Origin: Pseudomonas phage sp.
DNA: 19,946 nt
Sequence record: OQ658363.1
Direction: 5' to 3' (one strand)
In this document: positions 2,113-4,286 of the stretch, in pieces
Position numbering within the stretch: position 1 is the stretch's first letter
Layout: each line of letters begins with the position of its first letter
Notes under the pieces: model-generated
What the model was told of the DNA's origin: nothing
Seen by the model: only the letters and a program-made list of their open reading frames with translations
The model's database searches: none
Position numbers and translations under genes: made by a program

Positions 2113-2454
2113 TGTGAACATTGCTTCTGAGTGGTGAAATTCGTTCCAGTGCTTGATTTCTTGCGGGTGTGTAGGCTGGGTTCGTGCCTTTATGGCCTGT
2201 TGATCTCGACACTTTTTCGACAGTTCTGAGAGAGTATAAGGAGAGATGTCTCTTCGTAGCTTCGACATCATTTTGCCGCTCGTGCTACTTTTGAGGGAAA
2301 CAGGCCATGGATAGGTTCTCGCTGCAAATGGAAAGTCATCTCATTAACGCTGGATCACAGCACGTTTCTGTCACTTGTCTCGGCAGAAGCCTACAACCTT
2401 CTCATGCACCTCAATTGGTTCGATTGAGGTTGTCTGACTTCGTCTGGTTATAAG

Positions 2455-2523
2455 AAATTGCCAACCCGCTGGTGGCTGGTTTGTGGGTTATAGTTTTAAT
2501 TAAAGGTTCATGGAGAGATAGTT
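2455..2523 (+). promoter_or_regulatory. AT-rich putative promoter and RBS region for the cargo operon
   Basis: TTGCCA at 2458-2463 and TATAGT at 2489-2494, but the spacing is non-optimal. Strong Shine-Dalgarno GGAGAG at 2512-2517 sits 6 nt before the ATG at 2524. Local GC is much lower than in the flanking DNA. Confidence 0.3.
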
Positions 2524-3459
2524 ATGCATGCTATGGCACCATATTCGATTCGCGTTTATAACCCAAATTTGAAAGGGGTAAGGTTGGAGGATCGTTACGC
2601 TCTGCTTGATAAGGTTGGGCAGTTTGATGCTTATGCTGTTCTCCGAGACCATTTGCTGGCTCAAGGTGAGAAATTTAAGCTGATGGAGGAGGATAAGCAG
2701 GTTTATAGGTATTTTGGTATTAATGCGAACGACCAGAAGAGAGAGATCGCGGGATGGTTTGAGTTTGGAACCTATGGGGTGAAGAACGATATTATTGATG
2801 TGGAAACTGGAGTCGTTGATTTTGAAAAGACACAGAAGAATGCAGAGATAGTACGCCACTATATAAGGTTATATATTCCGGCTGGATTTAATGAAGGTAT
2901 TGCTCTTCTTCATAGCTTTAAGGGTAATGGGATAAAGACGGTGCTGTACGAGCAATTGCGTGCGCACTTTCATAACGTGACGAAGCTTAATCTTCAGCTT
3001 AATCCACTTGCGTATAATAAGGCATTTGAACTCTGGAAGGATGCTGTTGCGAAAGAGATAAAATTGGTTCGTTTTTCCGGTATGGGTGATATAACCGATC
3101 AAATCAAGAGGATGGGACATGACGAGCACGAACAAGAGCTTATTATTAAACCTCCGCGAAGAAAGAGCTTAGGTAAGCTGGTAGATTTCTTCACGCCGGG
3201 TACACCGGAAAATGCTACCGTTGAAGTTTTAATGCCCTTGTGCAGCCAATTAAAGACTACTGTGGCATTAAATGGGAAAACGCGCACATTCAATATCGGT
3301 CGGCCGGCAACCGAGCAAGTATGCGAGGTAGAAGTGGACGAGGATGATGTGGCTATTATTGCGGGTAATCCTGAGCCGCAGTCTCTGCATGATTGGTGTA
3401 CAAAAGTCTTGGGTGAGTTTGTTCAGTCCATCTATCCAGGAATGGGAGTCGTCAAGTGA
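2524..3459 (+). CDS. Hypothetical soluble protein, 311 aa. First gene of a low-GC two-gene cargo operon and candidate sensor component of a defence system.
   Basis: Long ORF with GGAGAG Shine-Dalgarno. GC is ~40% against ~62-65% in the surroundings, and codon usage is atypical for the host. No TM segments and an acidic C-terminal patch (EVEVDEDDVAIIAG). Its stop overlaps the start of the next gene (ATGA at 3456-3459). I recognise no family motif. Confidence 0.75.
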   Translation: MHAMAPYSIRVYNPNLKGVRLEDRYALLDKVGQFDAYAVLRDHLLAQGEKFKLMEEDKQVYRYFGINANDQKREIAGWFEFGTYGVKNDIIDVETGVVDFEKTQKNAEIVRHYIRLYIPAGFNEGIALLHSFKGNGIKTVLYEQLRAHFHNVTKLNLQLNPLAYNKAFELWKDAVAKEIKLVRFSGMGDITDQIKRMGHDEHEQELIIKPPRRKSLGKLVDFFTPGTPENATVEVLMPLCSQLKTTVALNGKTRTFNIGRPATEQVCEVEVDEDDVAIIAGNPEPQSLHDWCTKVLGEFVQSIYPGMGVVK

Positions 3460-3995
3460 GCAGCAAGATAAATGTTAAGGAAATTATTTGGGGGCATATA
3501 AATACTTTGTCTGATGCGCAGGGGCGAAGGTCTTTGGGGGATTTGTTTACTTTCTTTTTTGTGCCTGCGCTTCTTGCGGTTGCAGGTGCTTTTCTTGGGT
3601 TTAAGTTGAGCGATAATGCAGCATCGCTATTAGTGAATTTTGGGGCAATATTTACAGCGTTGTTGCTTTCTGTACTTGTGTTGGTCTATGAACAGGAGAA
3701 TAAGATAAAGCTGAGAGAAAAAGTCGATCCGCTATTTTCTGCAAAGAAAACACTGCTTGATCAGTTGTACTATAATATCTGCTATTCCGTTCTTGCTTCG
3801 ATTTTTCTCGTTGGTTTGTGTTTTGCGGCCTCATTGATTGGGAAGAAAGTGCTGAAGCTGTTGGTGTGTGAAAGTTTTTATTCTATTGATGTGTCGATGT
3901 ATTTTTTGAGTCCTTTGGTAATATTTGTGACAGTCAATTTAATGCTTACTATAGTTATGATTGTTAAGAGAATGCACGCTATGCTGTCTCTTTAG
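3456..3995 (+). CDS. Small integral membrane protein, 179 aa, with four predicted TM helices. Candidate membrane effector of the cargo operon.
   Basis: ATG overlaps the upstream stop (ATGA), indicating translational coupling. Hydrophobic segments at about aa 29-49, 57-79, 107-129 and 150-172. Same low GC as the preceding gene. Confidence 0.75.
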   Translation: MSSKINVKEIIWGHINTLSDAQGRRSLGDLFTFFFVPALLAVAGAFLGFKLSDNAASLLVNFGAIFTALLLSVLVLVYEQENKIKLREKVDPLFSAKKTLLDQLYYNICYSVLASIFLVGLCFAASLIGKKVLKLLVCESFYSIDVSMYFLSPLVIFVTVNLMLTIVMIVKRMHAMLSL

Positions 3996-4286
3996 GTTTT
4001 GAGGTTGGAGACGGGTTTTATTAATTTTGTAGTCTTTTGTTGTGTTGGCGTGGTTGTGGTTATAGGTTTAAGGCTATCGAGGTAAAGTCTCTTCTTTCAA
4101 CTGTTTAGCGGTTTGGTGATATTCTTGATCACCGCGCAGGATAGTGGCAGAGCCGCTGTTTTCTAATTACTAAAGCTCTGGTCTCGCTTTCTCCTCAAGT
4201 GTTCCGGCGCATCGTCCCTGTCTGCTTTCATTTCTTGCCTTCTGTCCGTAGGGCGTACCATCGTAGTGCTACTTTTCTAGTGATCG

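Follow-up and report, generated by a model that had tools for sequence, protein, structure and literature searches.

A putative RexAB-type abortive-infection gene pair in the accessory region of a Pf prophage

We describe two overlapping genes, ORF1 and ORF2, located next to the left end of a Pf prophage in a 19,946-nt stretch of DNA (referred to below as the window). They probably constitute a RexAB-type two-gene module for abortive infection or phage exclusion, carried as accessory cargo of the prophage. Defence systems of this kind have already been described in other bacteria, and the pair looks like a distant counterpart of RexA/RexB of phage lambda: the first gene encodes a soluble protein within the size range of approximately 280-370 aa and the second a small multi-pass membrane protein, the former protein has a RexA fold, the latter contains four transmembrane helices, and the genes adjoin the phage repressor gene, though in convergent orientation. 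At the sequence level, neither protein matched the Pfam families RexA (PF15969) and RexB (PF15968) at E ≤ 1.

The prophage and the gene pair

The left border of the prophage is marked by attL (positions 2088-2114, located as an exact 27-mer and not at 2086-2112, as given in the initial annotation), a 27-nt direct repeat of the 3' end of tRNA-Gly. Its partner copy (13492-13518; one mismatch) lies within a tRNA-Gly (CCC) gene (13490-13563, minus strand; ARAGORN), which contains attR and forms the right border; shuffled sequence contained no match to the repeat. The Pf context proposed initially was confirmed by the 100% identity of window positions 2113-13489 to Pseudomonas phage PfAC16 (OR863247.1), in whose record ORF1 and ORF2 are both labelled "hypothetical protein" and are followed by a repressor gene and then an excisionase gene. 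The study of PfAC16 lists only a TA system and PfsE as its defence systems, without counting ORF1 and ORF2 among them, and shows no PfAC16-specific assay (PMC11878078).

The pair is preceded by a non-coding leader (2115-2523, plus strand) without an ORF of known family. This leader presumably contains the promoter, since the cassette encoding the defence system Sucellos of Vibrio cholerae has been reported to carry a promoter of its own (bioRxiv 10.1101/2024.07.02.601686). A simple consensus scan of the leader found no sigma-70-like or other promoter-like site, and indicated an inverted repeat (hairpin) at 2461-2479.

The two co-oriented genes, encoding proteins of 311 and 179 aa, are present as originally annotated: ORF1 (2524-3459, plus strand) begins with ATG, and ORF2 (3456-3995, plus strand) overlaps it at 3456-3459. 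The letters of the overlap are GTGA instead of the ATGA initially reported, hence the start codon of ORF2 is GTG. Both genes have Shine-Dalgarno-like sequences, in agreement with the earlier claim: GGAGAG (2512-2517) ends 6 nt before the ATG of ORF1, and GGGAG (3444-3448) ends 7 nt before the GTG of ORF2.

Convergent with the pair is the neighbouring immunity gene, encoding the Pf4r-like Pf repressor (4287-4553, minus strand; "repressor" in the PfAC16 annotation), which matches phrog_147, a group of transcriptional regulators (E 7e-21). The Pf core starts with the gene of an XisF-like excisionase (4639-4887, plus strand; "excisionase" in PfAC16, where a later start codon was annotated, i.e. 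record positions 2560-2775, corresponding to 4672-4887 in the window). This protein scored just under the 27-bit Pfam cut-off for HTH_17 (25.8 bits, E 1.3e-5) and reached 22.9 bits against TIGR01764 (E 8e-5; cut-off 28.8).

The GC content of the pair is 0.42, compared with 0.61 in the Pf core (4639-13489); the difference noted initially is therefore real, with values slightly different from the approximately 40% and 63% given then. Its interpretation as a sign of recent acquisition does not hold. At all 32 IMG/VR loci the pair has a lower GC content than its flanks, irrespective of the host. Low GC therefore seems characteristic of the module as such, and is poor evidence of recent arrival.

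The two proteins and their relatives

ORF1 encodes a soluble protein (35.4 kDa, pI 6.3), which on fold comparison has the RexA/RdgC fold, composed of a split globular domain and a beta/alpha dimerisation domain. Its similarity to RdgC is about equal to that to RexA, and the fold alone is no proof of Rex function. The sole profile-profile signal was obtained when the ORF1 family was compared by hhalign with a RexA profile built from 32 sequences: a local match of only 18 residues (E 9.5e-4, probability 22%), pairing ORF1 202-219 (ELIIKPP) with RexA 184-201 (LDIVIKPK); we infer that this segment may correspond to the dimer-interface strand of RexA. Nothing was found with hhalign when the ORF1 profile was compared with the single RexA sequence, and a search of PDB sequences with this profile retrieved neither RexA nor anything else meaningful. 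A Foldseek search of BFVD with ORF1 listed RdgC-like phage proteins and nothing named RexA among the best 50 matches. We propose that ORF1 may act as a DNA-binding sensor or activator.

ORF2 (19.9 kDa, pI 9.2) contains four hydrophobic segments (residues 26-52, 54-80, 104-137 and 144-173), which agree with the four long helices of its AlphaFold2 model (27-47, 53-85, 94-128 and 146-178; pLDDT 82.3) and bear out the four transmembrane helices assigned at first. Lysine and arginine are mostly placed in the N-terminus, the middle loop (loop 2) and the C-terminus, a distribution consistent, by the positive-inside rule, with a cytoplasmic location of both termini. The protein belongs to phrog_15250, a group of unknown function, and has more than 343 homologues, in which helix 2 (LLVNFGAIFTALLLSVLVLVY) is near-invariant across genera. 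Comparison of the ORF2 family with lambda RexB by hhalign gave nothing (probability 0.15%), and the best Foldseek match of the model in BFVD was non-significant (E 0.04), with no protein named RexB. ORF2 is proposed to be a RexB-like membrane effector.

Searches of Pfam (E ≤ 1), NCBIfam and the PADLOC 2023 release produced no match for either window protein, in line with the initial remark that no known family was recognised for either. The same applies to their relatives: 44 diverse ORF1 relatives matched neither RexA nor any other family in Pfam and PADLOC at E ≤ 0.01, 36 ORF2 relatives did not match RexB in Pfam at E ≤ 1, and the two sets yielded only sub-threshold noise (DUF805, RseC_MucC and Cas2_II).

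ORF1-like and ORF2-like genes are strictly paired, i.e. adjacent and co-oriented at 32 of 32 loci in GTDB species representatives and on 32 of 32 IMG/VR contigs. The gene junctions mostly range from -4 to +23 nt, the 4-nt overlap being the commonest (29 of 63 loci). At 60 of the 63 the ORF2-like gene starts with ATG, the usual codon among the relatives.

Homologous pairs recur in prophage, satellite, integron and defence-island settings. In P2-like prophages the pair is placed between a CI-type repressor gene and tail gene D, while in Escherichia coli it occupies the psu-int interval of a P4-like satellite. Its carriage is not confined to phages, since integron cassettes, a mobilisable island and chromosomal defence islands contain it as well. 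Elsewhere the pair adjoins an SLFN-type helicase gene with MazG-like and ScoMcrA-like genes, and further neighbours include a SIR2 gene as well as restriction-modification and TIR genes. The initial suggestion of a sensor combined with a membrane effector fits the fold, the strict pairing and these contexts; the parts of it that referred to Kiwa and to recent arrival do not stand.

A Rex-type interpretation and its alternatives

In the lambda Rex system, RexA dimerises and binds DNA non-specifically, and an excess of RexA leads to RexB-dependent membrane depolarisation, by which infection is aborted. Two further systems, Sucellos and RexABpp of Pseudomonas putida, have no Pfam match and resemble RexAB in structure; in each, both genes are needed, and infected cells are killed or arrested (bioRxiv 10.1101/2024.07.02.601686; PMC12894663). 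By analogy with these three systems, a dimer of ORF1 would bind DNA non-specifically and report a phage-induced change, e.g. a DNA-protein complex or an intermediate of replication or recombination. It would then activate ORF2, envisaged as an oligomeric four-helix protein of the inner membrane, which would depolarise or permeabilise the membrane, so that the infected cell ceases to grow or dies before the invading lytic phage completes its cycle. The lysogen population, and hence the Pf prophage, would be protected.

The likeness to lambda RexA/RexB lies in the combination of a soluble RexA-fold protein with a four-transmembrane protein and in the proximity of a repressor gene. ORF1, however, exceeds RexA by 32 aa in length and is the closer of the two to RdgC, and ORF2 has 179 aa, compared with 144 aa in RexB. 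The lambda rex genes are co-transcribed with the repressor gene from its promoter, whereas the window pair is convergent with it; the carriers also differ (a lambdoid phage and a filamentous inovirus), and the pair has neither a Pfam RexA/RexB match nor a significant full-length profile match.

The strongest alternative, to which we would give somewhat less than an even chance, is that the pair belongs to the named Sucellos (SclA/SclB) family, in which case it would be of the same sequence family as VCA0367-0368 of V. cholerae N16961 (locus tags which we infer from the primer list of the preprint) and detectable with current DefenseFinder models, and what is new would be only its carriage by a Pf inovirus in P. 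aeruginosa. Sucellos is likened to the pair here by its description: it likewise has two genes, is unmatched in Pfam, resembles RexAB in predicted structure, resides in superintegron cassettes and prophages, and causes abortive infection for which both genes are required (bioRxiv 10.1101/2024.07.02.601686). At one V. cholerae locus (L008) the relatives of ORF1 and ORF2 together make up one superintegron cassette (about 1.7 kb), which comprises these two genes and has VCR/attC repeats on both sides; its proteins are 46-49% identical to those of the window. Moreover, DefenseFinder reported Sucellos in a P4-like satellite of Enterobacter cloacae (PMC13612085), which parallels the psu-int position of the pair in E. 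coli. Three observations argue against identity of the families: among the homologues listed there is no V. cholerae protein with contig counts as high as seventh-pandemic strains would be expected to give; the V. cholerae species representative does not match the conserved ORF2 motifs; and Salmonella prophages are said to carry Sucellos frequently, whereas tblastn of ORF1 and an Enterobacter relative against GenBank phages retrieved PfAC16 only and no Salmonella phage.

Conceivably, although we consider it rather doubtful, the pair represents a separate large Rex-like lineage, with a sensor structurally between RdgC and RexA and a pore-forming partner unrelated in sequence to RexB. If so, RdgC-fold DNA clamps would have joined with small membrane effectors on more than one occasion. 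In a filamentous Pf prophage, the influence of the module might extend to the Pf repressor/excisionase switch, as that of RexA does to the switch of lambda.

For RexABpp (PP_5643/PP_5644 of P. putida prophage P1), the termini deduced from published primers are MHRTATFV...RLMV for RexApp and MLIGQLANP...YKLQE for RexBpp. The N-terminus MHRTATF resembles the start of the ORF1 family (MH..A.[YF]), while ORF2 starts with MSSKIN and ends with MHAMLSL, differing from RexBpp at both ends. Since these termini differ from those of the window family, RexABpp appears to be a distant relative at best. The HHpred probability linking RexApp to RexA is 98%, against the 22% obtained with hhalign for the ORF1 family. 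An exact-DNA search for PP_5643 in IMG/VR and GTDB representative genomes found no match. The RexBpp suppressor positions (W25, F35, L55, T103, S145, G153 and Y181) were also compared with ORF2 relatives, of which the best agreed at four of the seven; as the termini derived from the primers disagree as well, this comparison was discarded as evidence.

Lambda RexA biases the lambda switch. A function of ORF1 as an RdgC-like DNA-binding protein primarily serving the element (e.g. in recombination, replication or the repressor/excisionase switch), with ORF2 as an accessory and phage protection not the main role, seems unlikely to us. ORF1 resembles RdgC in fold only: the Pfam scan assigned it to no family, RdgC included, and RdgC is encoded by a stand-alone chromosomal gene, in contrast to ORF1, which is always paired with the four-transmembrane gene (64 of 64 loci) on mobile elements or in defence islands. 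The integron cassettes, the mobilisable island and the chromosomal defence islands that carry the pair have no phage switch, and the most similar tested systems need both genes for defence.

A still less probable explanation is that of an addiction (toxin-antitoxin-like) module stabilising the prophage, in which ORF2 would be a membrane toxin restrained by ORF1. The presence of a soluble protein alongside a small membrane one, translational coupling and carriage by mobile elements are compatible with this, and deletions in the RexABpp-carrying prophage P1 frequently resulted in loss of the whole prophage, an effect seen with deletions anywhere in P1 and thus not rex-specific (PMC12894663). In RexABpp, however, the membrane protein is not neutralised but activated by its soluble counterpart (PMC12894663). 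The size of ORF1 also far exceeds that of typical antitoxins, and its fold resembles a DNA clamp; furthermore, frameshifted ORF1-like genes accompany intact ORF2-like genes at three loci (L024, L072 and L074), which cells could not survive if ORF1 were an antitoxin.

The Kiwa comparison raised in the initial annotation, which drew on similar component sizes and a four-helix membrane protein, can practically be set aside, as Kiwa encodes the four-transmembrane KwaA first and a DUF4868-containing KwaB, whereas the order is reversed here, ORF1 has a RexA/RdgC fold, and no KwaA/KwaB (PADLOC) or DUF4868 (Pfam) match was found in the window proteins (E ≤ 1), the 44 ORF1 relatives (Pfam and PADLOC, E ≤ 0.01) or the 36 ORF2 relatives (Pfam, E ≤ 1).

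Pf prophages are common in P. aeruginosa isolates from cystic fibrosis, and the defence systems known from their accessory ends are a complication for phage therapy. If the pair, which the PfAC16 study left as "hypothetical", is recognised as RexAB-type, the Pf cargo gains a probable abortive-infection system. This also provides a testable function for a family whose clusters at 50% identity number more than 1,200, without a match in Pfam, NCBIfam or the PADLOC 2023 release. Its sequences may form a bridge between RdgC and RexA, and could help to explain the origin of Rex sensors. A cluster look-up of ten distant representatives returned metagenomic singletons only, and the plasmids carrying a homologue number just four, all from Acinetobacter.

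The gene pair and its distribution

The window contains a Pf (Inoviridae) prophage whose sequence over positions 2113-13489 matches that of Pseudomonas phage PfAC16 (OR863247.1) with 100% identity. Between its attL and the Pf repressor gene (4287-4553, minus strand) lie two genes, ORF1 (2524-3459; 311 aa, ATG start) and ORF2 (3456-3995; 179 aa, GTG start), which bear the same designations in the PfAC16 record, where each product is a "hypothetical protein". Each gene is served by a Shine-Dalgarno-like sequence (GGAGAG, 2512-2517, and GGGAG, 3444-3448, respectively), and the GC content of the pair is 42%, compared with 61% for the Pf core. 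The two-gene unit proposed in the initial annotation is therefore confirmed, with small corrections. The overlap that had been read as ATGA is GTGA in the sequence, hence the GTG start of ORF2 (3456-3458), which is ATG in 60 of 63 homologous loci; the overlap is otherwise the usual 4-nt junction of the family.

The pairing of these genes is obligatory. ORF1-like genes lie immediately upstream of ORF2-like genes, on the same strand, in all 32 loci from GTDB species-representative genomes and in 32/32 IMG/VR viral contigs (the latter sampled via conserved ORF2 motifs), except that a 2.7-kb insertion separates the genes at one locus and frameshifts affect a few others. Junctions most often take the form of a 4-nt overlap (29 of 63 loci); almost all the remaining ones lie within about 20 nt. 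The insertion separates the two genes of the Acinetobacter locus L043 (5294-8001), ORF1-like genes are frameshifted in L024, L047, L072 and L074, and the ORF2-like gene of L047 is also split; at these loci the module seems to be in decay. The pair occurs in Pseudomonas, Vibrio, Acinetobacter, Aeromonas, Yersinia, Pantoea, Enterobacter, Halomonas, Alteromonas and others, as well as in occasional metagenome-assembled genomes outside the Proteobacteria. Its GC content (0.30-0.47) is lower than that of its flanks in 32/32 IMG/VR viral loci (L049-L080), whatever the GC content of the host. Low GC, previously taken as a sign of recent foreign acquisition, therefore characterises the module itself and does not prove that this prophage acquired it recently.

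As had been suggested for checking, homologous pairs recur in prophages and in defence-gene neighbourhoods. In P2-like Pseudomonas prophages the pair lies between a CI-type repressor gene and the tail genes D, U and tape measure, and at one locus (L015) two small genes separate the CI repressor gene from the pair that follows. In a V. cholerae superintegron it forms a single two-gene cassette of ~1.7 kb, second in the array, with VCR/attC repeats on either side. The pair adjoins SLFN-type helicase, MazG-like and ScoMcrA/NOV_C genes in a P. asiatica island and a SIR2 gene in an Enterobacter mobilisable element, and its other neighbourhoods include type I, II and III restriction-modification genes, TIR effector genes and PDC-S35. 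Among 5,426 complete E. coli genomes, 7 carry a full-length pair. That of strain H2 (NZ_CP028733.1; L084, 9017-10527; 308 and 194 aa, both annotated as "hypothetical") is located between psu and the integrase gene of a P4-like satellite at tRNA-Leu, a slot that Rousset et al. reportedly recognised in 2022 as a P4 defence hotspot.

Predicted folds and relation to Rex-like systems

Searches of ORF1 and ORF2 against Pfam, NCBIfam and PADLOC at E<=1 returned only noise, and 44 diverse ORF1-family members gave no meaningful match to Pfam or PADLOC. The PHROGs families of the pair (phrog_15676 and phrog_15250) are both of unknown function. It is noteworthy that a family which Pfam, NCBIfam and the 2023 release of PADLOC all fail to match is so large: among 1.84 billion representatives searched by profile, 1241 clusters matched ORF1 at E<=1e-3, nearly all full-length members being 300-320 aa long.

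ORF1 is predicted to consist of a beta-sheet domain at the N-terminus, a beta/alpha domain in the centre (~156-270) and a helix at the C-terminal end (285-303), an order of elements that fits the split globular domain of lambda RexA, which is interrupted by a beta/alpha dimerisation domain. A Foldseek search of BFVD with ORF1 retrieved uncharacterised phage proteins and a phage RdgC, a recombination-associated DNA-binding ring protein (E 8e-6). One uncultured phage, Siphoviridae sp. ctylc9, supplies both the second-best match of ORF1 and the best, non-significant match of ORF2 (E 0.04; A0A8S5S8L2 and A0A8S5S8H0). This phage may thus also carry an ORF1/ORF2-like pair, which suggests a pair conserved in predicted structure beyond the reach of sequence searches. 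Comparison of the ORF1-family profile (163 sequences) with that of RexA (32 sequences) yielded a single local match (E 9.5e-4, probability 22%), pairing ORF1 202-219 (HEQELIIKPPRRKSLGKL) with RexA 184-201 (DSLDIVIKPKFKRDIKKV), a weak link at the sequence level. Because D187, K191 and R196 are named as interface residues in the RexA structure paper, we infer that RexA 184-201 is part of the dimer interface.

ORF2 has four hydrophobic segments, modelled by AlphaFold2 (pLDDT 82) as four long helices (27-47, 53-85, 94-128 and 146-178), and its charge distribution suggests that both termini are cytoplasmic. The helix 2 motif LLVNFGAIFTALLLSVLVLVY(D/E)Q is nearly invariant from Pseudomonas to Vibrio, Shewanella, Alcanivorax and a Phycisphaerae metagenome-assembled genome. 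Similarity between ORF2 and lambda RexB was not detected, and the pair fails sequence-level membership in lambda RexA/RexB.

Two validated Pfam-negative systems, Sucellos and RexABpp, are structurally RexAB-like. Sucellos (sclA/sclB) is a two-gene cassette with its own promoter in the superintegron of V. cholerae N16961; defence requires both genes, infected cells undergo early death, and prophages reportedly carry homologues (bioRxiv 10.1101/2024.07.02.601686). The N16961 cassette reportedly carries an IS, and from the primer list of the preprint we deduce that Sucellos corresponds to VCA0367-0368. The name is in current use via DefenseFinder (PMC13656390, PMC13612085), a tool reported to have identified Sucellos in an E. 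cloacae P4-like satellite (PMC13612085); together with the E. coli H2 pair, this call provides a circumstantial link to the ORF1/ORF2 family. Since the pair occurs both as an integron cassette and in P4 satellites, its identity with Sucellos, compared here by description and context, is plausible, if somewhat doubtful; should it be shown, the pair is already known. In P. putida prophage P1, RexABpp is reported to follow a CI repressor and two small genes (PMC12894663), the layout also seen at L015. The termini of RexBpp derived from primers (MLIGQLANP...YKLQE) differ from those of ORF2 (MSSKIN...MHAMLSL), so the two are not close relatives, while the primer-derived N-terminus of RexApp (MHRTATF) faintly resembles the conserved MH..A.[YF] start of the ORF1 family. 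In description and setting, the pair is closest to Sucellos and RexABpp.

Proposed mode of action

ORF1 and ORF2 probably constitute a RexAB-type system, and its carriage by a filamentous phage is noteworthy. The sensor and membrane-effector module envisaged earlier is real and functionally coherent, its general logic having been rightly guessed, but its architecture is not new. The analysis establishes the two genes and their coupling, the fold, the membrane character of ORF2, the obligatory pairing and the settings in mobile elements and among defence genes; DNA binding, activation, membrane damage and protection are drawn from analogy. By that analogy ORF1, as a putative dimeric DNA-binding protein of RexA/RdgC fold, would sense a consequence of infection and activate ORF2; the latter, as an oligomeric four-helix inner-membrane protein, would collapse membrane integrity, abort the infection and so confer protection.

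It is less likely that the pair acts primarily in DNA transactions of Pf or the host, or in the lysogeny switch; given that lambda RexA has such a second function, the pair may have one too. An addiction module is also less likely: in L024, L072 and L074 an intact ORF2-like gene stands beside a frameshifted ORF1-like gene, evidence against an antitoxin role for ORF1. The suggested likeness to Kiwa is refuted at the level tested, KwaA/KwaB and DUF4868 being absent at E<=1 from the Pfam, NCBIfam and PADLOC scans.

Prophage borders and accessory content

A 27-nt direct repeat marks the two borders of the prophage (2088-2114 and 13492-13518, the second copy with one mismatch; no match is expected in a shuffled control sequence), and its second copy is enclosed by tRNA-Gly(CCC) (13490-13563). 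A gene for a 615-aa tyrosine integrase (1-1848, minus strand) lies left of attL, outside Pf. In other P. aeruginosa genomes of similar arrangement (L081-L083) the same integrase gene is preceded by DtrJ-like and TraG/TrwB-type genes, with a 1100-aa ORF lacking a Pfam match also nearby. It thus seems that an integrative conjugative element and the Pf prophage occupy the attachment site at tRNA-Gly in tandem. The exact ORF1 protein is encoded on at least 24 P. aeruginosa contigs, and the three places standing for all 24 have this Pf-plus-element arrangement.

The defence content described in the PfAC16 paper comprises only a toxin-antitoxin pair and PfsE (PMC11878078). The PfAC16 record annotates a Phd/YefM-RelE type II toxin-antitoxin pair (12758-13366) at the prophage's right-hand accessory end; excision and circularisation would place this pair across attP from ORF1-ORF2, directly upstream and on the same strand. 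Within the Pf genome, GC content falls to about 0.47-0.49 at 7051-7500, the 5' end of the coat protein A gene, whose start differs between records (437 aa from 7087, compared with 398 aa in PfAC16).
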